A stretch of 64,000 bases of DNA from a phage, in the NCBI GenBank assembly GCA_017676145.1, contig GCA_017676145.1_3628.1. The stretch is one strand, 5' to 3'. The notes under the pieces were generated by a model. It was not told the origin of the DNA. It saw only the letters and a program-made list of their open reading frames with translations, and did no database searches. Both the position numbers and the translations under genes were made by a program. Positions 37,436 through 51,025 of the stretch are shown piece after piece. The first letter of the stretch is position 1. Each line of letters opens with the position of its first letter.

Positions 37436-38214
37436 TTAGATAAAACGCTTGAACATAGAAGGTGATGAGATTGATGGAATCACACAAGGAAGTGCTACCT
37501 CCTCTTTCTCCAGGAAATTAATCGCAGAAGCCACACAGTCGGCCCAGTCGTCTTTTCTGTTAAATGTTGATCTTTCCCCGTTGAATTTTTCAAGTTCAGT
37601 CAGAAATGCTTCCAGAGTATCAGGATGGAAACTGGATTTTACAATCCTCACCATTCCTTGTTGGGCAAGATTGGCAAAAGGTGAGAACCTTGTTAGTTTA
37701 GATTTGTTGGAAGGCATTGGATCTTCTTCAACCCTAAACCCTTCGGCGAGTAAGGATCTGGAGGAGGTTAAGAACTCACTCTTACCTGCCTGACCTGGGT
37801 CCACAGAGAATACGATTATACAATCATCACCATCAAACTGCGCCTGTTTCCTGATGATCACATCTCGTTCACCAGCCTTTTTACAGAACTTACCTTCCAG
37901 ACCTGTGGAATATCTCCCGTCATCCACGTTCTCAGGACAATAATCACCGGACAGGTAATAAAAGCCGTCGCTATCTTTACTTACCTTAACACTGGCGGTA
38001 AAGTCAGGAAATTTATTACCGGAAGTTCTCTCGGTTCCTGCCTTATCCCATGCCCTACAAGATACTGATCCAAGGGGTACTCTATCGGCATCACGAAGGA
38101 AAGATCTTTGAAAATAGTTTGCACCCTCAGGCTTTGCAAACCAGTTACCATGAAGAAGCTGAGCTTTTTCCAGTTCCGGCAGACCTTCAAGGAAAGCAAG
38201 GTATTCGGGGTTGT
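37436..38214 (-). CDS. terL: terminase large subunit, exon 3 (nuclease domain)
   Basis: reading frame is open upstream of the annotated GTG start back to about 38242 with no start codon; translation NPEYLAFLEGLPELEKAQLLHGNWF...DDWADCVA matches terminase C-terminal pattern. Confidence 0.6.
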
Positions 38215-39214
38215 CTCTTAAGCAGACAGGATTATCGAATCCTTATATTCAAAGGTGGTCGCAACACCACCTTCCGCACCTTTACGTGCTGCTGCATGTT
38301 ACCATGCAGAGTAGACTATATCACCACCCATCTCAGGGTGCTTCGCTTTTCGAGCGCCATAAGCTTGCGCCCTACTCCCTCTCGGGATAGTCGTTGAACT
38401 ACATTACCAATCGTAATTGTTTGAAATATAGGTGTAAGTCTTACGATCTTTTATTCCTTTAACAACACTAAAACTTACTCCCCACTTCTTAGCTATTTTA
38501 TTTACACACAAAACCCTGTCGCTAAGATCCTCGCAGATACCTATTATCTTGTGCTCACTTATCCTATTAGAGGTTGGCACTTTTCTAAAGTTAAACTCTT
38601 TAGAAATATCTGGGTATACTGAGCCATTCTTTATACCACTTACAAGTGGTTGATTGACACCAAACATTTCACAAATGTCTTTTACCCTTGCACCTTGCTC
38701 TAACAGCCTACATATTTCAAGAGCAGTGGCATCATCTAGGGACCTGTATCTATTGATATAGTCCTTTTTAAGTCCCATTTCATGAGCGTGATGTGTGTTT
38801 TCCTCAGGCGTTGTCCACTCAAGGTTCCATGCGGCGTTATTCAACTTATTACCATCCAGGTGGTTTACTTGAGTTTTCACGCTGGGATTATCATTATCAA
38901 CAAAAGTCATAGCAATCACTCTGTGGACTAGCACTTGGAACTTTTTACCGCCCTCGCACAAAGTTACCATAGCATAGCCAGTCTTTTTCTGCACATTAGG
39001 ATGGAGGAATTTATTAGAATACAGACTGTAAATTCTTCCATCGTATGTAGCACAATAATGATTGTAACCTAAAAAGCCTAAATTTTTCATTTCAAACATC
39101 TCCCTACTACAGGTTCGGAAGGGTAATTATAGCTGCTGATTGTCCGTTTAGCAATCGGATTTTCCAGCAATTAACGAAGTTATTCGACGTGCATTTCTGC
39201 ACGAAGCCACTATC
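38215..39214 (-). mobile_element. group I intron carrying an HNH homing endonuclease ORF
   Basis: minus-strand conserved elements P-like AATTGCTGGAAAATCCG (39156-39172), R GTTCAACGACTATCC (38384-38399), S GATATAGTCTAC (38311-38322); interrupts the terminase frame; boundaries approximate to a few nt. Confidence 0.65.
38404..39099 (-). CDS. HNH homing endonuclease (intron-encoded)
   Basis: 231 aa; HHLDGNKLNNAAWNLEWTTPEEN HNH motif; lies entirely within the intron. Confidence 0.75.
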   Translation of the reverse strand: MFEMKNLGFLGYNHYCATYDGRIYSLYSNKFLHPNVQKKTGYAMVTLCEGGKKFQVLVHRVIAMTFVDNDNPSVKTQVNHLDGNKLNNAAWNLEWTTPEENTHHAHEMGLKKDYINRYRSLDDATALEICRLLEQGARVKDICEMFGVNQPLVSGIKNGSVYPDISKEFNFRKVPTSNRISEHKIIGICEDLSDRVLCVNKIAKKWGVSFSVVKGIKDRKTYTYISNNYDW

Positions 39215-41384: not shown

Positions 41385-41461
41385 TGGTCTCCACGGAGTG
41401 ATTCGAACACTCGACCTCCTGATCCCAAATCAGGCGCTCTACCAAGCTGAGCTACGCGGAG
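41385..41461 (-). tRNA. tRNA-Pro (anticodon UGG)
   Basis: hand-folded cloverleaf: acceptor CTCCGCG/CGTGGAG, anticodon loop TTTGGGA, T-loop TTCGAAT, 3' CCA encoded. Confidence 0.7.
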
Positions 41462-41472
41462 TATTTATAATT

Positions 41473-41547
41473 TGGTGGCCCTGGGTGGAATTGAACCACC
41501 GTCTGGCGATTATGAGTCGCTTGCTTGAACCTTCCAGCTACAGGGCC
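41473..41547 (-). tRNA. tRNA-Met (anticodon CAU; could be Ile2 if lysidinylated)
   Basis: acceptor GGCCCTG/CAGGGCC, anticodon loop CTCATAA, T-arm GGTGG-TTCAATT-CCACC, CCA encoded. Confidence 0.65.
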
Positions 41548-41548
41548 A

Positions 41549-41624
41549 TGGTGCTGATGGCAGGACTTGAACCTGCAACCTATTGATTACAAATCAATTG
41601 CACTACCGATTGTGCTACATCAGC
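41549..41624 (-). tRNA. tRNA-Thr (anticodon UGU)
   Basis: acceptor GCTGATG/CATCAGC, anticodon arm ATTGA-TTTGTAA-TCAAT, T-loop TTCAAGT, CCA encoded. Confidence 0.7.
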
Positions 41625-41629
41625 AAAAA

Positions 41630-41728
41630 GGTGCTAGGTGATGGAATCGAACCACCTATGTATTCAACGACTACCTCGTCTATTTTCAGGATTAAAAATC
41701 CTCGCCCTTGCCAAAGGGCTTACCTAGC
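41630..41728 (-). tRNA. atypical tRNA-like gene, anticodon UUU (Lys) candidate, with about 30 nt variable region
   Basis: perfect 7 bp acceptor GCTAGGT/ACCTAGC, D-arm GCCC-TTTGGCAA-GGGC, anticodon arm GAGGA-TTTTTAA-TCCTG, T-arm GGTGG-TTCGATT-CCATC; extra hairpin GACGA-GGTAG-TCGTT in variable region. Confidence 0.45.
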
Positions 41729-41826
41729 GCAATATGTTGACCATGTGGCTAGTCGGCGATGACGACTGTAACATTTGATAATCCGGTTCTGCTTCCGGCT
41801 TTCGCTTAATTACAAGGTCAACAATG

Positions 41827-41917
41827 TGGCGGAGAGTAATGGAATCGAACCATCATCGAGTCATCCTCAACGGGACGGTTTTCAAGACCGCTTGAGCACC
41901 ATTGCTCCCTACCCTCC
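41827..41917 (-). tRNA. tRNA-Ser (anticodon UGA), long variable arm
   Basis: acceptor GGAGGGT/ACTCTCC, anticodon arm GCGGT-CTTGAAA-ACCGT, T-loop TTCGATT, CCA encoded. Confidence 0.65.
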
Positions 41918-42031
41918 TTTATAAATTACACTGATAATGACACTGATTTTCGAGCAGTTAGTGACTAGTATAAACGACGATAAATATCAATGCCATTATC
42001 TGTATGATTTATGCATTTAAAAATATAAATT

Positions 42032-42119
42032 TGGTGGTGAGTGATGGAGTCGAACCACCCGAATCGCAATGATAACAGATTTACAGTCTGCCCCGCTACC
42101 CCTACGGAATTAACTCACC
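42032..42119 (-). tRNA. tRNA-Tyr (anticodon GUA), long variable arm
   Basis: acceptor GGTGAGT/ACTCACC, anticodon arm GCAGA-CTGTAAA-TCTGT, T-loop TTCGACT, CCA encoded. Confidence 0.65.
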
Positions 42120-42249
42120 TAAATACTAATATTTAAATTCTTTTTAAAATAGCTAGTGTTCTCACCACTAACTATGAGGTATCGGTAAAGTGGTTACCGC
42201 CACTTGCCGAAGATTTACTCTGCTAAAGTAAGCTACATTAAAAAGAACT

Positions 42250-42324
42250 TGGCACCCCGTACTGGACTCGAACCAGTGTCAACGGCTTAGAAGGCCGCTG
42301 CTTTATCCACTAAGCTAACAGGGC
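42250..42324 (-). tRNA. tRNA-Arg (anticodon UCU)
   Basis: acceptor GCCCTGT/ACGGGGT (two G-U pairs), D-arm GCTT-AGTGGATA-AAGC, anticodon loop CTTCTAA, T-loop TTCGAGT, CCA encoded. Confidence 0.65.
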
Positions 42325-44862: not shown

Positions 44863-45213
44863 CTAACCAGTTGTTGACATTCGAATAACCTCTTCTGGTG
44901 GCAAAACTTTGGAAAATGTGCATCTTTTACCTCTCCCTTGTGTGGATATTTCAACCACTCCTGCACATTCTAAAGTTTTAACGCACGCTGCTGCTTTTGT
45001 TTTCTTTATCCCAACATCTGCTGCAATTTTCCTTGTGCTGGGTGTGAAGCGTGAATTTCCTCCAAGCTTATACCAGTTGTGCAGGTAGCAGTATACGATC
45101 TTGTCATACAAGTCAAGAACAACAACCTCCCCGGTTGTGTCATTCAAAACTTTTGACATAGACAGTATTTCAAGGGGGACTTTAAGATATAGCAGCTTAT
45201 CCCCATCTTTCAT
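44863..45213 (-). CDS. helix-turn-helix DNA-binding protein (candidate iteron-binding or replication initiator)
   Basis: 116 aa; PSTRKIAADVGIKKTKAAACVKTLECAGVVE has helix-turn-helix character; gene ends about 75 bp from the iteron array. Confidence 0.4.
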   Translation of the reverse strand: MKDGDKLLYLKVPLEILSMSKVLNDTTGEVVVLDLYDKIVYCYLHNWYKLGGNSRFTPSTRKIAADVGIKKTKAAACVKTLECAGVVEISTQGRGKRCTFSKVLPPEEVIRMSTTG

Positions 45214-45260
45214 ATCTCCTGATTCTCCTTGTGTGGCAATTTTCTTTAAAATAGCAGGGA

Positions 45261-45815
45261 TTACTCCCCGCTGTCAATAGCAAGACTCATTGCAATACGG
45301 TATGCCTCTTCTAATGGTAAGAGTCTCCCCCACACATCCCAACCGACATCAAACTGCCTGCCAAACAACTGTTGCGTGGTTCCGTGAGCATGACCGAACA
45401 GTTGGACTGATCCGTGATGCTTTCTGTTCCACGTTGCAAACTGGTAATGACTCATACAGATCAAATTCTTGTTGTGGCGAAACTCGTAATAATCTACAAC
45501 CTCATGATAGAACTCTTTCATAATTCTGACAGTCGTCCTTGTGTCATGGTTGCCACGAACAAGAATAATATGTCCGTTCAACATATTTAGAATATCTGGA
45601 AGTAAGTTGTTGATATTCTTATCATTAGTGCACGCAATATCCCCCAAGTGGAACACAGTGTCTGCAGGTGACACAACAGAGTTCCACTCGGTGATGATTC
45701 CAGCATTCATACTGTCAAGATTGTGATCATACTGAGATCTGTGTTTTTGACACGAGTCAAACTCCATGACCCGCTGGTGGAGAAAGTGTGTGTCACTTGT
45801 TACAAAGTATTTCAT
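45261..45815 (-). CDS. calcineurin-like metallophosphoesterase (candidate RNA 3' end-healing phosphatase)
   Basis: start at internal ATG 45815 with GAGGAA Shine-Dalgarno; motifs SDTHF, LGDIACTND, RGNHD, GHAH. Confidence 0.6.
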   Translation of the reverse strand: MKYFVTSDTHFLHQRVMEFDSCQKHRSQYDHNLDSMNAGIITEWNSVVSPADTVFHLGDIACTNDKNINNLLPDILNMLNGHIILVRGNHDTRTTVRIMKEFYHEVVDYYEFRHNKNLICMSHYQFATWNRKHHGSVQLFGHAHGTTQQLFGRQFDVGWDVWGRLLPLEEAYRIAMSLAIDSGE

Positions 45816-45822
45816 ACATTCC

Positions 45823-46233
45823 TCATTTAAGTTTAATGCAGTTTTTAAGCTGGCGTTCCATACGATCCACGACCATGTCTGGAACATCATGAATGCTTTT
45901 ATTACCGTGGCGGTTTTCAACCACGATTACGGTATAACTATACCCATGACTGATTGCCATGTCAACATATTCTTGCACATGTTTTTCTTTTGTAAACGTA
46001 TTACTTACCACGATACGGTCGTATCCCATACGCATCATATCTTCTACGTTATCTTTGCACCATTTTGCTGCAAGTGTTACTTTACTTGCATCCCAGTTGT
46101 AATTGCCGTCATCGTCGTACCAGAACATGTCGTTCTCAAAATGTGGATACAGACCTTCTAAAGATAGCGCATTTGCCAGTGTTGATTTGCCAGACCCTGG
46201 TAGACCACGCACGATATATAGCATTTTAGACAT
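45823..46233 (-). CDS. polynucleotide 5'-kinase (T4 Pnk kinase-domain-like)
   Basis: start at internal ATG 46233 with GGAGG Shine-Dalgarno; P-loop GLPGSGKST; IVVSNTFTK and VPDMVVDRMERQL parallel T4 Pnk kinase motifs. Confidence 0.7.
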   Translation of the reverse strand: MSKMLYIVRGLPGSGKSTLANALSLEGLYPHFENDMFWYDDDGNYNWDASKVTLAAKWCKDNVEDMMRMGYDRIVVSNTFTKEKHVQEYVDMAISHGYSYTVIVVENRHGNKSIHDVPDMVVDRMERQLKNCIKLK

Positions 46234-46351
46234 AGCGGCCCTCCGTTTTAATTTTAATGATAGTATAGCGTGCTCTTTTGAACATTTCAAGTGTTGACAT
46301 GATGCTGTTTGTGTGGGAAGATTGTGGAACAAAATGACAAATGAGGAACGT

Positions 46352-47269
46352 ATGATGAAGTATTTTAATGCAGACGACCTAGTTGACAAAGGTCTTGTAA
46401 CCAGCAGATATTACCCAGATCTTGGATTAAAGATCTATAAATATGCCAGAAAAGTATTTTACAACAATTTATGGCATTTGTCTCCTCGTTTGCTGGAGTG
46501 CCGGGGAATTGTTGTCGGTAATGAAGGAAATGTTGTGGCATGGCCCTTCACAAAAGTGTTTAACTTGGGAGAAAACTCCACCAACCTGCCTGACAATAAG
46601 CTTGTGACGGCGGTAGAGAAAAAGAACGGATTCCTTGGTGTGGTATCATCTCATAAAGGTGAACTATTGTTCTCAACAACCGGATCTCTTGATTCTCCAT
46701 ATTGTAACCTCGCAAAGGAAACCATCCAGGAGCAATGTGGTAATTTAGATCTTATCAAGAAGGTTATGGGCAAAGAAAACATGACATTCATGTTTGAAAT
46801 TTGTCACCCTTCAGATCCGCATATTGTTCAGGAAGATCATGGCGCATATTTGATAGGCTGCAGATATAATGATTCTGGAATAATGCTACCAGAAGCAGCT
46901 TTAGATGGGATTGCCAAACACCTTGGTGCAAAACGTCCTCACACTGTGCGTGAAATTCCGTTCAGCTATGCAAAAGAATTAGCTGCAGAAACAAGAGGTG
47001 AAGGGTATATGATTCGTAAGCCTTACTACCCTTATGACCTGCAGCTGAAGATCAAGTCTCCATACTATCTGGCACGGAAGGCCGTAATGAGGGGTAAGGC
47101 TTGGAAGATTTGGGATGATGATATCTTTAAACGTATTGACGAAGAGTTTTACGGCATGGTAAACTTCATTCGTAGCAATTACACAGAGGATGTGTGGAAC
47201 TGCCTCCTGGAGCAGGAACGCCGTGAGATACTTGATTGCTATTTCCACAACGAGGACTATATGCAATGA
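46352..47269 (+). CDS. RNA ligase (Rnl2-like nucleotidyltransferase)
   Basis: motif I-like EKKNG, motif IV-like EGYMIRKP, motif V-like KIKSPYY; start chosen at ATG 46352 after GAGGAA. Confidence 0.55.
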   Translation: MMKYFNADDLVDKGLVTSRYYPDLGLKIYKYARKVFYNNLWHLSPRLLECRGIVVGNEGNVVAWPFTKVFNLGENSTNLPDNKLVTAVEKKNGFLGVVSSHKGELLFSTTGSLDSPYCNLAKETIQEQCGNLDLIKKVMGKENMTFMFEICHPSDPHIVQEDHGAYLIGCRYNDSGIMLPEAALDGIAKHLGAKRPHTVREIPFSYAKELAAETRGEGYMIRKPYYPYDLQLKIKSPYYLARKAVMRGKAWKIWDDDIFKRIDEEFYGMVNFIRSNYTEDVWNCLLEQERREILDCYFHNEDYMQ

Positions 47270-47616
47270 AGAAGTTGATTGTGTGGCTTGATGATTTTAG
47301 AGATCCGTCAGATTATGGACTCCCAGACGCTCTGTGGCTAAAGAATTCTTCTGAGTTTATGGATTTCATCGATGACAAGGGAAAGCTATATAGACGCGTT
47401 TCTGAGTGGCATTTTGACAGCGACTTGGGAGAAATTTTTGAAGGATACGATTGCTTCTGCATACTAGAGGAAAAATTTGTATTTGGTAAGCCTCCTGTAG
47501 TTGACAACGTGAAGATTTTCGTGCATACTTCTAACCCATCAGCGGCTCGTAAATTCATGCTTGCTGCTGACTCGTTTAAAAAGTTTGGAATAGAGATTAA
47601 ACAAAACATCTACTGA
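47266..47616 (+). CDS. hypothetical protein, adjacent partner of SIR2 gene
   Basis: 116 aa from ATG overlapping upstream stop (ATGA); begins MKKLIVWLDDFRDPSD; single HTS motif; no family recognised. Confidence 0.4.
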   Translation: MKKLIVWLDDFRDPSDYGLPDALWLKNSSEFMDFIDDKGKLYRRVSEWHFDSDLGEIFEGYDCFCILEEKFVFGKPPVVDNVKIFVHTSNPSAARKFMLAADSFKKFGIEIKQNIY

Positions 47617-47624
47617 GGACACTT

Positions 47625-48386
47625 ATGCGACGACTGATCATTATCTCCGGCGCTGGTTTGAGCGCTGAATCTGGTATCCCAACTTTCCGATCTGGTTGCA
47701 CTGCAATGTGGGAGAATTTCAGCATCGATGAGGTGTGTAACATCCACACCTTTGCCAAGAACTACTATAAGGTGCATGACTTTTACAATGCACGGCGTGT
47801 AGCTCTGGGCAGTGTTGATCCTAACATTGCACATCTCCGGATCGCTGAGTGGTATTCCCGCTGGTCTGGTCGTGTGATCAACCTGACCACCAATGTAGAT
47901 GATTTGCTGGAGCGTGCTGGTGTAAAACATGAAGATATTTTACATGTCCACGGATATTTGCCAGAAATAGTCTATGAGGATGATGAAGGGAGTGACGTCA
48001 TTAAAGACATTGGATACTCTGAGGTAGATGCAAGCGAGTATACTTGGGTCAAGCCTAATGTGGTGTTCTTCGGAGAAGTAGCTCCGAAGTATACAGACAT
48101 GTATGACCTGTTGACTTCTCTTACGAGTAATGATATGGTTATCCTTGTAGGGTGTTCCAACACAGTTATCAATTTTAACTGGGAGCTATTCCCTGCCTGC
48201 AATAAGGGAACCAAACTGCTGATCGTTAACAAATACGACTCACAGCAGCTAGGGGAGAATGGTATTTCACGTAGTGATATTTACCAATATGAGGATCGCG
48301 GCATCCCAGTTTGGTTTAACGGGGCGGTTGATGCTTTCTCTGATAAAACATTCATTGAGACCGTAGAAAACTTTATGGAACTTTAA
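47625..48386 (+). CDS. SIR2-family NAD-dependent protein (sirtuin-like)
   Basis: GAGLSAESGIPTFRSG Rossmann motif and HVHG catalytic His motif; 253 aa. Confidence 0.7.
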   Translation: MRRLIIISGAGLSAESGIPTFRSGCTAMWENFSIDEVCNIHTFAKNYYKVHDFYNARRVALGSVDPNIAHLRIAEWYSRWSGRVINLTTNVDDLLERAGVKHEDILHVHGYLPEIVYEDDEGSDVIKDIGYSEVDASEYTWVKPNVVFFGEVAPKYTDMYDLLTSLTSNDMVILVGCSNTVINFNWELFPACNKGTKLLIVNKYDSQQLGENGISRSDIYQYEDRGIPVWFNGAVDAFSDKTFIETVENFMEL

Positions 48387-48399
48387 AAGGAGACCTTTA

Positions 48400-49113
48400 A
48401 TGCTGAATACCAAATTAATTGACAACCTGGAAAAACTGTCCCAACCTGAAAACTACCTTTGGTCTGCCAACTGGGTGGAAAACTGGAACCGTGTGGCAGC
48501 TAAAGTGAAAAAATCATACACACCATTCGAATTACAGCTTAGCTTCATTGAGGAAGAGTTCAATGAAGTTTTGGAAGAGCTGGAGAAAGGTGATGGCGGA
48601 GATCACCTGCTAAAAGAGGCCTGCGATCTTCACGTTGTCACAAGTTATGCCGCTTATCTTGTTAATGATAATCACGAAAAGTGGTCAAACCTGTTTGATA
48701 ATCCACAGGGTCTTAAGTTCAAGATCGGTGAGTTCTATGATACACTGATCGCTGCGAAAAACACCTCTAAGCAAAAAGCGTCCGCTTACCGCTTAGCAGA
48801 GTTGTCAACAGCTTTGCTGTTCCAGCTTCGCGGCGATGTGTGCGGGATGATGCGTAAGGTTCTCAAATCGAATGACAGCAAGTTTGCACGAGTCAACCAT
48901 CTACGGTATTCACACGGTGCCAGTGCAGATATGCCTGCTGAACAACTCATCGAGTTGGAGATTAAAGATCTTGAGCGACGCTTTGATGGTCGATATGAAG
49001 GTTTTGTTGCTAAGGAAGAATTCTACAACGGAAATAAAGTTATCATATTCCTCGACAGTAAAGGTAAGATTATGAAGCCTTCAAGCTTCAAGGATGTAAC
49101 AGAATATATTTAA
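48400..49113 (+). CDS. MazG-like nucleotide pyrophosphohydrolase
   Basis: EEEFNEVLEELEKGD and LLKEACDL acidic helix motifs. Confidence 0.45.
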   Translation: MLNTKLIDNLEKLSQPENYLWSANWVENWNRVAAKVKKSYTPFELQLSFIEEEFNEVLEELEKGDGGDHLLKEACDLHVVTSYAAYLVNDNHEKWSNLFDNPQGLKFKIGEFYDTLIAAKNTSKQKASAYRLAELSTALLFQLRGDVCGMMRKVLKSNDSKFARVNHLRYSHGASADMPAEQLIELEIKDLERRFDGRYEGFVAKEEFYNGNKVIIFLDSKGKIMKPSSFKDVTEYI

Positions 49114-49119
49114 CAACAT

Positions 49120-49147
49120 AGCCGGGGCGATCCCGGCTTTACTTGTT
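49120..49147 (+). terminator. rho-independent terminator
   Basis: GCCGGG-GCGAT-CCCGGC hairpin followed by TTTACTTGTTT. Confidence 0.5.
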
Positions 49148-49177
49148 TCGGAAAGTATGCAAGTGAGGTAGAAAGTT

Positions 49178-49486
49178 ATGTACAAGCACTCCAGAGACCT
49201 TGAAAACGATGCTGTGTTTGGAGATCAGATGAAAGAATTGGTTAAACTTATAGGTAGGATAGAGGATAAGTTTGACACTAAGATCTACATCGACAGCAAA
49301 GTATTCAACCACAAAATATGGACAAATCTGTGTGTTGGACTACATGGAGATAAGGATGTGGTAAATTTAGTTGTAATTAAGTTCATAGTGTGGCAGAATA
49401 GAACCATAAGTTATTACGATCCGCACCTACTTGTTTACCCGATAAAAGATCTATTAGAGAAGGAGGACTGCAATGCCGTTATTTAA
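49178..49486 (+). CDS. hypothetical protein
   Basis: 102 aa ORF. Confidence 0.3.
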   Translation: MYKHSRDLENDAVFGDQMKELVKLIGRIEDKFDTKIYIDSKVFNHKIWTNLCVGLHGDKDVVNLVVIKFIVWQNRTISYYDPHLLVYPIKDLLEKEDCNAVI

Positions 49487-49742
49487 TCTTGCTAAACCTG
49501 TAGAAGCACACCAGTTTGATGGAAGCTCTTCATCAGTATCTGATCTGCAACGGTGGATTGATACAGGTGTGTTTACATCGTCACCTGTTCGAACCAGAGA
49601 TATTCTTCGCATGTGTGAGCTTGTCGAGCCGTTTGGTAACCTTGTCTTGTACCAAGGGGATTGGTTAGTTGACTTTATGGGAGACTGGTTGGTAATGAGC
49701 AAAGAAGAGATGTTTAAAATTTTTAAGGAAGAGGCTGAGTAA
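49473..49742 (+). CDS. hypothetical protein
   Basis: 89 aa ORF, overlaps neighbours. Confidence 0.3.
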   Translation: MPLFNLAKPVEAHQFDGSSSSVSDLQRWIDTGVFTSSPVRTRDILRMCELVEPFGNLVLYQGDWLVDFMGDWLVMSKEEMFKIFKEEAE

Positions 49743-51025
49743 TGCATCAGATCAAAACAACACTGTACGCACTGAACAAAGATGGCAGCTACCAACAGTG
49801 GAAAGTATTCACGGATGGTGATAAGGTTATCGTAGAGTTTGGCAAGCTTGATGGTAAACTGCAATACAAAGAGACGATCTGCACACCTAAGAACGTTGGT
49901 CGTGCCAATGAAACTACAGCTGAGCAACAGGCTGAGCTGGAAGCGATCAGTAAGTGGGAAAAACAAGTCCGTCTGGGGTATGTTGAAAATATGGAAGATT
50001 GCGAGCAGGGTGTTGACCTTTTACCCATGCTGGTGCATGACTACCTGAAGCGTGGAAAGGCACTTAAATTACCTTGCTGGATCTTGCGTAAGTTAGATGG
50101 CCTTCGTCTACTTGTTGTTTTCCAAAATGGTGAGCCTAAATTTATTTCCCGTGGTAATAAGTCCTACCCTATTCAAGGAAAGCTTCTGGAGCAACTTCGT
50201 TCTTTCCACTTCACCACCGGGATTAAACAGCTCGACGGAGAGATCTATATTCATGGCCTGCCTCTGCAGAAAATAGTGTCTCTTGCTAAACGGTGGCGCA
50301 CACAGGAAGAGATTCAGGCCGAGATCGATAAAGACTACGAGGCAGATAAAAAACGCCGTCATGCCGCAATTAAGGCAGGCTTATCAACATACAAAAACTT
50401 CAACAAGGTAGATATTCCTGTTGATGTTGAGCCTGTTCGTGATGATTTGCGTTACGGTGGGTACTGTAGCTACGATCTAGAGTATCACATTTTTGATATT
50501 CCTAGTGACAAGGTGTGGTGGGATCCAGAAACAGAATCTGGACGCTGCAAGGATCTTATGGATGTAGAAGATACCATTACCACTCTGATGCTTGACCATA
50601 TCAAGGTTGTTGACGCAGAGCTTGCGTACACAGTTGATCATTGCGAAGAATCTGTCGGTGTATTCATGTCCGAAGGGTATGAAGGTACTATCATGCGTAA
50701 CTTCTGTGGTAAATACGAATACGGTCAGCGAACATCTGAAGCATTGAAATGGAAAAAGTTCAACGATGCTGAGGTGAAAGTTATTGACGTTGAGAAAGAT
50801 AAGAATGATGAAGGTGTTCTTATCTGTGTTGACAAGGAAGGTATTGTTGTTAAAATGAAGATGAAAGGTACGCACGAGGAGCGTAGCTATGACAGGATGC
50901 AGGAAATGATCGGCAAGTTTGTCACCTTCAAATATCAAGCAAGGACAGAAGACAACAACTACCAATTCCCTGTCGGTATCTGCGTCCGAAATGTTAACCC
51001 AGACACTTGGGAGGTGCTGGAATAA
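49742..51025 (+). CDS. ATP-dependent DNA ligase
   Basis: motif I KLDGLR, motif III LDGEIYIHG, motif V-like LKWKKF. Confidence 0.65.
   Translation: MHQIKTTLYALNKDGSYQQWKVFTDGDKVIVEFGKLDGKLQYKETICTPKNVGRANETTAEQQAELEAISKWEKQVRLGYVENMEDCEQGVDLLPMLVHDYLKRGKALKLPCWILRKLDGLRLLVVFQNGEPKFISRGNKSYPIQGKLLEQLRSFHFTTGIKQLDGEIYIHGLPLQKIVSLAKRWRTQEEIQAEIDKDYEADKKRRHAAIKAGLSTYKNFNKVDIPVDVEPVRDDLRYGGYCSYDLEYHIFDIPSDKVWWDPETESGRCKDLMDVEDTITTLMLDHIKVVDAELAYTVDHCEESVGVFMSEGYEGTIMRNFCGKYEYGQRTSEALKWKKFNDAEVKVIDVEKDKNDEGVLICVDKEGIVVKMKMKGTHEERSYDRMQEMIGKFVTFKYQARTEDNNYQFPVGICVRNVNPDTWEVLE

Follow-up and report, generated by a model that had tools for sequence, protein, structure and literature searches.

The window, the whole stretch of 64,000 nucleotides analysed here, comes from a Vequintavirus, an rV5-like phage of E. 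coli. More than 100 sequenced phages share about 96% identity with it, and in these the genes of the cluster under study are already annotated. The features of the cluster are:

45261-45815, minus strand: metallophosphoesterase (MPE), 184 aa
45823-46233, minus strand: Pnk-like kinase, 136 aa
46234-46351, no strand: intergenic region from which the kinase-MPE unit and the ligase operon diverge
46352-47269, plus strand: RNA ligase, 305 aa
47266-47616, plus strand: cREC protein, 116 aa
47625-48386, plus strand: sirtuin (SIR2), 253 aa
48400-49113, plus strand: MazG-like protein, 237 aa
49120-49138, plus strand: terminator-like hairpin, AGCCGGGGCGATCCCGGCT, then a T-rich tail

All six open reading frames were found where the sequence-only reading had placed them, with the same gene order and strands, and each has kept its catalytic motifs. 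Judged from their sequences, the six genes are real and look active; with long reading frames, strong profile matches and about 96% identity kept across 122 phage records, they are not chance findings.

The kinase and MPE genes are spaced by 7 nt on the minus strand and diverge from a plus-strand series in which the ligase gene is followed by those of cREC, SIR2 and the MazG-like protein. The ligase start previously proposed at position 46352 is supported by a GAGGA ribosome-binding site upstream of this ATG. The stop codon of the ligase gene is overlapped by the cREC start codon (ATGA), an arrangement that suggests translational coupling and makes these genes the tightest pair in the cluster, an observation new to this study; gaps of 8 nt (cREC-SIR2) and 13 nt (SIR2-MazG-like) follow. 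Seven nt past the MazG-like stop codon, a G+C-rich hairpin with a T-run (a consensus match) probably closes the ligase-cREC-SIR2-MazG transcription unit. The divergent intergenic region coincides with the switch of the coding strand of the genome and a change of sign of the GC skew (at about 46 kb); it harbors a minus-strand promoter-like site (46290-46262, TTGAAA-17-TATACT), recognized by consensus match only, and a plus-strand TTGACA (46295-46300). The phage itself carries genes for tRNA-Lys(UUU), tRNA-Tyr(GUA) and tRNA-Arg(UCU), which are classical anticodon-nuclease targets, 4 kb from the cluster, a point in favor of RNA repair.

The ligase is predicted to be an ATP-dependent RNA ligase of the Rnl1 family. 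It matches Pfam RNA_lig_T4_1 (E=2.6e-15), its family profile recovers T4 Rnl1 (2C5U; E=5.3e-15), and the best Foldseek matches of its AlphaFold model (pLDDT 92) are T4 Rnl1 (9DO4; 2.8e-13), Trl1-LIG (9QW7/6N0T/6N67) and Rnl3. Profile and fold comparisons alike group it with RNA ligases (T4 Rnl1, fungal Trl1-LIG and Rnl3), while the E-values of DNA ligases are worse by at least seven orders of magnitude; the original RNA ligase assignment stands. The nucleotidyl-transfer (adenylyltransferase) residues are all conserved in the ligase family, with R51, K68, F70, K90-x-N-G93 (motif I), E149, E217-G218, K233 and K235 being invariant. One position counts against a role in RNA repair: Lys119 of T4 Rnl1, essential in that enzyme, corresponds to an invariant Thr in this ligase family.

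From its sequence, the kinase is a predicted stand-alone P-loop 5'-OH polynucleotide kinase with no attached phosphatase domain. It matches Pfam AAA_33 (E=2.5e-10) and phrog_505 'polynucleotide kinase' (E=1e-9), and the best full-length matches of its family profile are polynucleotide kinases, namely the T4 Pnk kinase domain (1LY1; E=2e-8), the CthPnkp kinase (4GP7; 1.7e-6) and Pnkp1 (4XRP; 2.9e-6), and not unrelated P-loop kinases, in keeping with the T4 Pnk-like function first suggested. Residues G15, K16 and D35 are invariant, and D35, the general-base/catalytic Asp, aligns with D35 of T4 Pnk. Among kinase homologues with 42-47% identity, four of the ten tested carry a fused HD phosphoesterase, and one fusion joins the kinase to an Rnl1 ligase (P0321). 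The neighboring gene was correctly read as a calcineurin-type phosphoesterase: its product exceeds the curated cut-off of Pfam Metallophos (E=2.5e-6) and matches phrog_547 'phosphoesterase' (E=1.6e-51), and among proteins of known structure it is nearest to A. aeolicus aq_1665 (1XM7; E=4e-11). All metal-binding motifs are intact, and 15 homologues show no variation in any of the five MPE motifs (D8-x-H10, G58-D59, G88-N89-H90-D91, H123 and G141-H142-x-H144). The MPE is a candidate 2',3'-cyclic phosphodiesterase, or 3'- or 2'-phosphatase, for RNA ends, or a candidate for processing ADP-ribose phosphate products.

The 116-aa protein had been listed as an unknown; its match to Pfam cREC_REC (PF20274; E=4e-13), which at 50.3 bits clears the cut-off of 27, identifies it as a putative cREC (cyclic-phosphate-processing receiver) domain protein. 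Its receiver-type acidic pocket is invariant in 10 homologues (D9, D10, D51, D53, S89, N90, P91, K96), and it is predicted to open, without the aid of a metal, either 2',3'-cyclic phosphate or 1'',2''-cyclic ADP-ribose phosphate. The sequence-only reading saw healing as divided between separate kinase and MPE genes; the functions are indeed split, but with a predicted cyclic-phosphate esterase among them the split is three ways, not two. Among phages, cREC occurs in 344 records, mostly adjoining an RNA ligase, an arrangement found across the Vequintavirinae and in phi92/phapecoctavirus-like phages.

The SIR2 assignment was confirmed by a match to PF02146 (E=1e-26), and the protein belongs to a phage-specific sirtuin clade. 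Its profile is closest to E. coli CobB (1S5P; 3.1e-25), followed by Sir2Af and SIRT5, all of them protein deacylases; no defence-type SIR2 model was matched, and the protein, by sequence, does not resemble defence NADases. Both the catalytic His and the pocket for NAD+ have been preserved, with G9-A-G-x-S13…S16-G17…F21-R22, Y54, R57, N90, D92, H109-G110 and F149-G-E151 invariant or nearly so. In the region aligned to the Zn module of CobB, no conserved Cys was found, which suggests a remodelled substrate-binding lobe. The retention of the class-III anion-binding pair Y54-x-x-R57 in the absence of zinc cysteines is described here for the first time.

The MazG-like protein is an all-alpha NTP pyrophosphohydrolase of the MazG/PRA-PH/dimeric-dUTPase superfamily with a small C-terminal beta extension, and its best structural matches are dUTPases. 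It had been counted as part of the ligase operon, and it follows SIR2 after 13 nt; yet the linkage is loose, as in Mydovirus the gene lies 3 kb away, past the DNA ligase. This looseness had not been noted before. Membership in the repair module is doubtful, and the gene may serve ordinary nucleotide metabolism. Downstream follow genes for DNA ligase, endonuclease VII, an exonuclease, NT5C, ThyX and RNR; the ATP-dependent DNA ligase (49742-51025) begins 0.6 kb from the cluster.

The physical coupling of sirtuin and ligase, to which the sequence-only reading drew attention, holds here within one operon but is specific to a lineage. Of 61 independent sirtuin loci, 12 contain the complete set, and all 12 are of rV5/Mydo-like size; the other 49 have no ligase within 10 kb; that the adjacency is confined to rV5/Mydo-like phages is a further new observation. 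The sirtuin clade is present in 977 phage records versus 734 for the ligase, and the host distributions differ (287 versus 14 in Salmonella phages). T5-like phages possess the sirtuin without the ligase, and the phapecoctavirus vB_EcoM_REC has its sirtuin at a distance of 34 kb from the cREC-ligase pair, which stays together. In the T5-like phage SP15, the same sirtuin clade adjoins an RNA-repair-type HAD_SAK_2 phosphatase (E=5e-20), a second, independent link of this clade to RNA-end-processing enzymes. Overall, three separate phage lineages link the sirtuin to enzymes processing RNA ends or ADP-ribose phosphate (including those in PMC9503650).

The cluster is already known, so that the sirtuin coupling is not new as had been supposed: comparative genomics with phage V5 as the prototype described the same neighborhood, with the specific hypothesis that the sirtuin removes an RNA 2'-phosphate with NAD+, as KptA/Tpt1 do (Iyer et al., 2022; PMC9503650, section 3.7.3). 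The RNA-repair reading was reached there independently (PMC9503650; PMC7824862). Our literature search found no experimental study of the cluster enzymes. Transposon data published for Bas54, a relative, class five of the six genes as non-essential and cREC as intermediate on E. coli K-12, as expected for conditional accessory genes. Resampling on a uropathogenic clinical isolate revealed no significant change for sirtuin, cREC, ligase, kinase or MPE (q at least 0.75), which speaks against the repair reading; that study also found the T-even PseT (Pnkp) orthologue to be conditionally required on a natural isolate, which speaks for it.

RNA healing and sealing, as first proposed, remains the best interpretation. 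On balance, we favor viewing the cluster as an accessory RNA-repair module of rV5-like phages, in which kinase, cREC (with or without the MPE) and ligase quite probably form a heal-and-seal pathway; alongside the observed gene identities, active-site motifs, operon structure and conservation, we infer the following biochemical steps. The 5'-OH would be phosphorylated by the stand-alone kinase, the cyclic phosphate would be opened by cREC, with the MPE aiding the opening or stripping the resulting monophosphate, and the Rnl1-type ligase would then join the 3'-OH to the 5'-phosphate. If a 2'-phosphate remains, as in the fungal/plant pathway, the sirtuin might transfer ADP-ribose from NAD+ onto it, whereupon the catalytic His would drive its release as ADP-ribose phosphate. 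The by-product might be cleared by phosphoesterases, possibly including the MazG-like pyrophosphatase. Participation of the sirtuin is a tentative proposal, slightly on the doubtful side, and that of the MazG-like protein is unlikely. The cluster as a whole may play a counter-defence role.

Repair could instead follow the T4 route, with kinase, cREC and MPE restoring 5'-phosphate and 2',3'-diol ends for the ligase, while the sirtuin, as a CobB/SIRT5-like deacylase (or ADP-ribosyltransferase), retunes host or phage proteins, and the MazG-like protein, as part of the DNA-metabolism block next door, acts as a dimeric-dUTPase-type nucleotide sanitiser, both being mere neighbors. The sirtuin's closest relatives and its Tyr-x-x-Arg pair, the dUTPase matches and displaced Mydovirus position of the MazG-like protein, the downstream DNA-metabolism genes, and the lack of a nearby RNA ligase in most sirtuin-bearing phages, many of which have no such ligase at all, agree with this view. 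Moreover, the complete active site of the MPE could take off the phosphate entirely, which would make 2'-phosphate removal unnecessary and counts against the sirtuin step. In addition, a KptA is encoded by E. coli itself, and no sirtuin is known to act on an RNA phosphate. We nevertheless consider this sirtuin-free route somewhat unlikely, since the canonical deacylase Zn-binding cysteines are missing, the ties to RNA-end/ADP-ribose-phosphate enzymes recur in three lineages (PMC9503650), and the sirtuin lies only 8 nt from cREC, with a common terminator. A more distant proposition is that cREC, sirtuin and the pyrophosphatase produce or break down soluble immune signals, either ADP-ribose derivatives or cyclic nucleotides, instead of treating RNA ends. 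Genomic linkage to NAD+/ADPr-processing enzymes was the basis on which the cREC family was defined, and the opening of cyclic ADP-ribose phosphates was its predicted activity (PMC7824862); a pyrophosphatase could split ADP-ribose derivatives, like the Nudix enzyme of the jumbo-phage version (PMC9503650). However, cREC appears translationally coupled to the ligase and remains its neighbor in the phage whose sirtuin is 34 kb off, the MazG-like protein resembles dUTPases, and neither Macro, NADAR or Nudix partners (Pfam) nor PADLOC or anti-defence family matches were found for the cluster, rendering such signalling improbable.

The healing enzymes might also serve DNA, with kinase and phosphoesterase converting 5'-OH/3'-phosphate nicks for the downstream DNA ligase in the manner of PNKP-type enzymes. 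T4 Pnkp and HD-Pnk enzymes are active on DNA as well as RNA, the DNA ligase is present at every locus with the complete set (1-2.5 kb from the sirtuin), and the ligase-associated PdeM family gives a weak match to the MPE, at E=0.001 and far under the cut-off. Yet a clearly RNA-type ligase and cREC sit in between, the hairpin and two small ORFs set the DNA ligase apart from the operon, and the ligase found in a kinase fusion is an RNA ligase, with no DNA ligase among the fusion partners; we therefore give this possibility little credence. Finally, phrog_562 and many GenBank records of rV5 relatives label the ligase 'RNA ligase and tail fiber protein attachment catalyst', and T4 Rnl1 does have a second activity in tail-fibre attachment. 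A mainly gp63-like function is nonetheless highly improbable: the label was inherited from T4 through homology, all adenylyltransferase residues are conserved, and the Bas54 ligase tolerates insertions at 56 of 60 TA sites, whereas the N-terminal domain of T4 rnlA tolerates none.

Set against known systems, the ligase of the favored heal-and-seal module is, with 305 aa, shorter than T4 Rnl1 (374 aa). In canonical deacylases, Zn-binding cysteines shape the peptide-binding lobe; the phage sirtuin lacks them but retains the Tyr-x-x-Arg pair with which class III sirtuins bind succinyl/malonyl carboxylates. The proposed sirtuin step would represent a sirtuin-fold analogue of KptA/Tpt1 (Iyer et al., 2022).

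The cluster of six genes for a kinase, a calcineurin-type metallophosphoesterase, an RNA ligase, a cREC-domain protein, a sirtuin and a MazG-like pyrophosphatase is a rediscovery of a described and publicly annotated system. A sirtuin-centred, NAD+-utilising phage RNA-repair neighbourhood was described by Iyer, Burroughs, Anantharaman and Aravind (2022, Viruses 14:1977; PMC9503650), and its configuration 2 has Escherichia phage V5 and Proteus phage Mydo as prototypes (PMC9503650). Close relatives carry the annotations 'RNA ligase', 'polynucleotide kinase', 'sirtuin domain NAD-dependent deacetylase' and 'putative phosphoesterase', and the cREC protein is already named in at least one public record. 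Our literature search found no experimental study of the phage sirtuin, of cREC or of rV5 tRNA repair. A sequence-only reading had proposed these six ORFs and taken them for a tRNA-repair counter-defence set; all six are present with the positions and strands it assigned to them, and its RNA-repair interpretation was reasonable and the observation is confirmed, but it had missed that the system was known. The region is organised as follows.

Gene cluster and adjoining features in the window
45261-45815, minus strand: metallophosphoesterase ORF, 7 nt past the kinase ORF
45823-46233, minus strand: kinase ORF
Between kinase and ligase: divergent intergenic region of 118 nt
46352-47269, plus strand: RNA ligase ORF, 305 aa
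Following the ligase, plus strand: cREC gene, 116 aa, its ATG overlapping the ligase stop codon (ATGA)
47625-48386, plus strand: sirtuin gene, 253 aa, 8 nt past the cREC gene
Following the sirtuin, plus strand: MazG-like gene, 13 nt past the sirtuin gene
49120-49138: G+C-rich hairpin followed by a T-run, 7 nt past the MazG-like gene
49178-49486 and 49473-49742, plus strand: two small conserved ORFs of 102 and 89 aa (phrog_7684 and phrog_14585)
49742-51025, plus strand: ATP-dependent DNA ligase gene, found 1-2.5 kb from the sirtuin in every locus with the repair set

The source phage is an rV5-like (Vequintavirus) E. coli myophage. When positions 45000-49200 were searched with megablast, 122 phage records were matched; in 118 the match spanned at least 80% of the query, and the best reached ~96% identity; the best matches included APECc02 and the BASEL phages JeffSchatz and JohannBauhin. 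To the left of the six genes are structural genes and a tRNA cluster; the genes on their right encode DNA ligase, endolysin, endonuclease VII, an exonuclease, NT5C, ThyX and RNR. The GC skew turns from negative to positive at ~46.2 kb, in the divergent intergenic region between kinase and ligase, and the coding strand switches at the same point from a late block on the minus strand to an early-middle block on the plus strand. This flip could reflect the direction of transcription alone or a replication-related switch.

Searches of solved structures with single sequences returned no useful match for either the ligase or the kinase, so that family profiles built from homologues were needed. NCBIfam likewise gave only sub-threshold matches for all six cluster proteins. 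The ligase passes the curated Pfam threshold for RNA_lig_T4_1 (E=2.6e-15), and a profile of 33 ligase homologues matches T4 Rnl1 at E=5e-15. A Foldseek search with its confident AlphaFold model (pLDDT 92) ranked T4 Rnl1, fungal Trl1 ligase domains and archaeal Rnl3 highest (~1e-13 to 1e-10; T4 Rnl1 structure 9DO4 at 2.8e-13), DNA ligases appearing only above 1e-5. The Lys of motif I is present, as are motifs III, IV and V of the Rnl1 family: K90-x-N-G93, E149, E217-G218 and K233/K235 never vary and correspond in the alignment to T4 K99, E159, E227-G228 and K240/K242, and the full set of invariant residues aligns with T4 R54, K75, F77, K99, G102, E159, E227, G228, K240 and K242. The roles of these T4 residues reportedly come from mutagenesis in the Shuman laboratory. 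At the position of T4 K119 the phage ligase family has an invariant Thr. The C-terminal domain of T4 Rnl1 (residues ~255-374) confers tRNA specificity. The phage ligase has 305 aa against the 374 aa of T4 Rnl1, the profile alignment stops at about T4 residue 249, and the model holds only ~60 helical residues past motif V (TM-score 0.52 over the T4 chain). A transfer of the 2'-phosphate-binding residues of the Trl1 ligase domain to the phage ligase was dropped as unreliable at ~18% identity.

The kinase is a single domain of 136 aa. Its family, P-loop proteins of ~135 aa, is very large and numbers 6195 representatives at E<=0.001. Among the best full-length matches of its family profile are T4 Pnk (2e-8), the kinase domain of Clostridium thermocellum Pnkp (CthPnkp; 1.7e-6) and Pnkp1; the profile aligns to residues 1-145 of T4 Pnk only, and the invariant Asp35 of the phage kinase falls on the T4 general base Asp35. 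Among homologues with 42-47% identity, a fusion to an HD phosphoesterase was seen in 4 of the 10 multidomain examples scanned, and another of this group (P0321) is fused to an Rnl1 ligase. All five metal-binding motifs of the metallophosphoesterase are invariant; its nearest solved relative, aq_1665, is uncharacterised. The protein between ligase and sirtuin matches PF20274 with 50.3 bits (cut-off 27), and the acidic pocket of receiver type is intact, with D9, D10, D51, D53, S89 and K96 invariant. Its place between these two genes fits a cREC protein, for which neighbours are expected to be RNA ligases or NAD+/ADP-ribose enzymes and not histidine kinases. According to the paper that defined the cREC domain (Iyer et al., 2021; PMC7824862), its predicted activity is the opening of 2',3'-cyclic phosphates or of cyclic phosphates of ADP-ribose. 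The assignments of an RNA ligase and a Pnk-like kinase in the sequence-only reading are borne out, the ligase by family profile and fold and the kinase by family profile, and the 116-aa protein that it had listed as an unknown is a cREC protein.

The best-supported reading of the cluster is an RNA heal-and-seal pathway of kinase, cREC and ligase, with or without the metallophosphoesterase; it draws on homology, domain fusions, the operon's structure and active sites that are intact, and we regard it as probable. In such a pathway, the kinase would phosphorylate the 5'-OH, the 2',3'-cyclic phosphate would be resolved by cREC, with or without help from the metallophosphoesterase, and the Rnl1-type ligase would seal the break. 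The MazG-like protein has a four-helix core with E-x-x-E...E-x-x-D metal-binding motifs, which places it in the MazG / all-alpha NTP pyrophosphohydrolase superfamily. Its dUTPase-like fold and a gene position that varies among phages, 3 kb away and beyond the DNA ligase gene in Mydovirus, argue against a core role.

A HIDEN-SEQ preprint mapped transposon insertions in Bas54, an rV5-like relative (10.1101/2025.11.20.689424), in which the six genes match those of the window in length and order. Essentiality was called on E. coli K-12.

Transposon insertions in the Bas54 genes (10.1101/2025.11.20.689424)
0206, MazG-like: 35 of 40 TA sites hit, non-essential
0207, sirtuin: 48 of 51 TA sites hit, non-essential
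0208, cREC: 16 of 21 TA sites hit, intermediate
0209, RNA ligase: 56 of 60 TA sites hit, non-essential
0210, kinase: 33 of 36 TA sites hit, non-essential
0211, metallophosphoesterase: 26 of 27 TA sites hit, non-essential

In the resampling rows examined for 0207-0211, none of these genes changes significantly between a uropathogenic isolate and K-12 (q>=0.75), and the row examined for a T-even PseT orthologue lists that gene as conditionally important (log2FC -1.9, q=0) (10.1101/2025.11.20.689424). Since the Bas54 ligase is non-essential and the N-terminal domain of T4 rnlA does not tolerate insertions, the inherited label 'tail fibre attachment' for the phage ligase is weakened, and we disfavour it. 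The Bas54 orthologue of the DNA ligase is non-essential as well (69 of 73 TA sites hit), which is unexpected for the only annotated DNA ligase of a large lytic phage. The 102-aa and 89-aa ORFs between the terminator-like hairpin and the DNA ligase gene are also non-essential in Bas54, and no domain was detected in either of them.

How firmly the sirtuin belongs to this set was addressed by scanning 61 loci that encode its clade, ±10 kb each, with profiles of all components. A ligase lies near the sirtuin in only 12 of them, all in rV5/Mydo-like genomes of 137-153 kb; these 12 loci invariably hold the kinase, the metallophosphoesterase, the MazG-like gene and the DNA ligase, and cREC in most cases. 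The other 49, mostly T5-like and phi92-like, have none of these partners within ±10 kb. GenBank phage records contain the sirtuin 977 times, the ligase 734 times and cREC 344 times, and host distributions differ markedly (Salmonella phages: sirtuin in 287, ligase in only 14). In the phapecoctavirus vB_EcoM_REC, the cREC sequence falls under a feature that bears the label RNA ligase, and 34 kb separate it from the sirtuin. From the locus scan, the record counts and this layout it follows that ligase and cREC are the conserved core and that adjacency of the sirtuin is lineage-specific. That the sirtuin has a second association with an RNA-end-processing enzyme, independent of the first, is confirmed by the T5-like phage SP15, in which a HAD_SAK_2 'Swiss-army-knife' phosphatase of RNA repair (E=5e-20) is encoded two genes away. 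In Mydovirus, all genes are co-directional and the kinase gene stands between cREC and sirtuin. One Mydovirus locus (L001, Klebsiella phage VIK251) encodes NamPT and PRPP synthetase, enzymes of NAD+ salvage, at 1-1129, ~5 kb upstream of the repair cluster; no NAD+ salvage genes were found among the ORFs scanned at 35.8-63.8 kb of the window. About 20 GenBank records of the MG0656xx series, labelled 'Campylobacter phage' with C. jejuni as host, share 92-97% identity with E. coli rV5-like or phi92-like phages and are probably mislabelled or contaminant assemblies.

The sirtuin itself, a single domain of 253 aa with no sensor or partner domain, is encoded 356 nt downstream of the Rnl1-type ligase gene in one operon. 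Its nearest matches are E. coli CobB, archaeal Sir2Af and SIRT5 (3e-25 to 1e-15). GAGxS...FR, N90/D92, H109-G110, FGE and Y54/R57 are invariant or nearly so in 34 sirtuin sequences and align with CobB, so that the NAD+ pocket is kept, together with catalytic His109 and the Tyr54-x-x-Arg57 pair of class III. The family alignment has no conserved Cys in the segment aligned to the Zn-binding Cys region of CobB; this loss of the zinc module points to a remodelled substrate lobe. Against the defence SIR2 models in PADLOC (ThsA, DSR, SIR2-HerA and others), the protein gave only a non-significant match (E=0.0099, 13 bits). As PADLOC found no defence-system membership for the cluster, we rejected the idea that the phage carries a SIR2 NADase as part of a defence or exclusion system.

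That the sirtuin acts within the repair pathway at all is possible, although we put this somewhat below an even chance. Several points speak against a KptA-like role for it: the sirtuin often occurs without any ligase, its relatives are deacylases, the metallophosphoesterase is present and could render removal of a 2'-phosphate unnecessary, and the host has its own KptA. The main rival, an independent CobB-like protein-modifying enzyme, is in our judgement rather unlikely. For a sirtuin that does take part in RNA repair, the most attractive hypothesis is the published one of a KptA-like removal of 2'-phosphates (Iyer et al., 2022; PMC9503650), to which we add the pocket rationale and the lineage-restricted linkage. 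By analogy, sirtuin chemistry would make such an activity natural. The usual reaction begins with attack of a substrate oxygen on C1' of the nicotinamide ribose, after which the His-activated ribose 2'-OH attacks the adduct; were a phosphate oxygen the nucleophile, the same pair of steps would be those of Tpt1. SIRT5 and CobB bind a carboxylate with their Tyr-x-x-Arg pair; in the phage protein this invariant pair could hold a phosphate, so that the class-III pocket would accommodate an RNA phosphate in place of the succinyl carboxylate, with the catalytic His activating the ribose 2''-OH. The rV5-like phages would then perform a eukaryote-style, 2'-phosphate-retaining tRNA ligation, assembled from folds unrelated to the eukaryotic ones, with cREC taking the place of a 2H enzyme and the sirtuin that of Tpt1. 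As a specific claim, that the phage sirtuin is an RNA 2'-phosphotransferase, or a broader RNA-phosphate ADP-ribosyltransferase, we consider unlikely.

Should the published prediction be true, this would be the first sirtuin shown to act on a nucleic-acid phosphate and a second, convergent solution to NAD+-dependent 2'-phosphate removal; the cREC domain would gain a defined activity, and the rV5-like coliphages, a large and therapeutically used group, would carry a tRNA-repair counter-defence in addition to their own tRNA genes. The remaining interest of the system lies in the ready testability of the sirtuin and cREC predictions, as all the proteins are small and look soluble, mutants of Bas54 survive, and its transposon library is already saturated.

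The tRNA genes in question and a further feature to the left of the cluster are these.

tRNA genes and terminase region of the window
41385-42324, minus strand: seven-tRNA cluster, Pro(UGG), CAU, Thr(UGU), Lys(UUU), Ser(UGA), Tyr(GUA) and Arg(UCU)
41632-41728, minus strand: tRNA-Lys(UUU), 97 nt, anticodon loop UUUUUAA
39853-40281, minus strand: Terminase_6N ORF, part of the terminase large subunit
38404-39099: HNH/HTH homing-endonuclease gene between the Terminase_6N and Terminase_6C ORFs
37436-37927, minus strand: Terminase_6C ORF, part of the terminase large subunit

The CAU-anticodon tRNA is called Met by ARAGORN and Ile/ATA in the Bas55 annotation; the Tyr gene (42035-42119) was found by Rfam only, and the Ser gene (41831-41917) by ARAGORN, Rfam giving only a sub-threshold tRNA-Sec match. 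The tRNA-Lys(UUU) has a ~25-nt insertion in its variable region with a possible 5-bp extra arm (GACGA/UCGUU), unusual for tRNA-Lys; ARAGORN miscalls its anticodon as one of four bases, and the Bas55 orthologue is annotated as tRNA-Lys. PrrC and PARIS classically target tRNA-Lys(UUU), so this atypical gene 4 kb from the repair cluster may provide a nuclease-resistant replacement. The terminase large subunit appears split, as it is in the Bas54 annotation, which suggests an intron or another intervening element.

Compared with T4 Pnkp (PseT) and Rnl1 (gp63), which counter PrrC, the phage set shares an Rnl1-family ligase with the same catalytic residues, a related P-loop 5'-kinase with the same general-base Asp, and dispensability on K-12. 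However, T4 Pnkp joins its kinase to a HAD (DxDxT) 3'-phosphatase, whereas the phage kinase stands alone with 136 aa; no HAD domain was found among the cluster proteins, and 3'-end healing is assigned to cREC and the metallophosphoesterase. The phage ligase has 69 aa fewer than T4 Rnl1 and probably lacks most of the latter's C-terminal domain, its Bas54 counterpart is not needed for virion assembly, and T4 has neither a sirtuin nor a MazG-like partner.

If the sirtuin hypothesis holds, the logic would resemble that of fungal and plant Trl1 (ligase-kinase-2H CPDase) with Tpt1/KptA, in the shared order of cyclic phosphodiesterase, kinase, Rnl1-type ligase and NAD+-dependent removal of the junction 2'-phosphate; by its modelled fold the phage ligase appears as close to the Trl1 ligase domain as to T4 Rnl1. 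In contrast to Trl1-Tpt1, the components are separate genes, the candidate cyclic phosphodiesterase is the receiver-fold cREC and not a 2H protein (no 2H domain was found in the cluster, the cREC protein adjoining the ligase instead), and the NAD+ enzyme is a sirtuin and not the ART-fold Tpt1, no PTS_2-RNA/KptA match being found in the cluster. With CthPnkp (kinase-metallophosphoesterase-ligase) the cluster has in common a related kinase (E=1.7e-6), a calcineurin-type phosphoesterase and an ATP-dependent RNA ligase, and close homologues of the phage kinase occur as HD-Pnk fusions, as in the HD-Pnk enzymes. Unlike in CthPnkp, the phage genes are separate, the metallophosphoesterase is small and aq_1665-like rather than lambda-phosphatase-like, and the ligase is of Rnl1 type rather than a Pnkp ligase; a Hen1/methyltransferase domain was not found among the cluster proteins.

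With the class III sirtuins CobB and SIRT5, which are NAD+-dependent lysine deacylases, the phage sirtuin shares the motifs of the Rossmann NAD+ pocket, the catalytic His and a Tyr-x-x-Arg (Y54/R57) that aligns with FYNARR of CobB. It differs from them in lacking the Zn-binding cysteines, in a variable region between GAG and YxxR with insertions of up to ~27 aa, in a clade confined to phages, and in a gene context of RNA-end processing instead of metabolism. Closest of all is configuration 2 of Iyer et al. (2022): the window is ~96% identical to V5-group phages, its ligase protein is 97.7% identical to that of phage V5, and it holds both the hallmark of this type, a phage-clade sirtuin adjacent to a T4-like RNA ligase, and its partners, namely cREC, a kinase of nucleotides, a pyrophosphatase from the MazG superfamily and the optional calcineurin-like phosphoesterase. 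It is the same system in a close relative, with nothing essential different, and to its description we add the orientation of the kinase and metallophosphoesterase genes, divergent in Vequintavirus and co-directional in Mydovirus, the ATGA overlap of ligase and cREC, the variable position and dUTPase-like fold of the MazG-like protein, and the lineage-restricted linkage of sirtuin and ligase.
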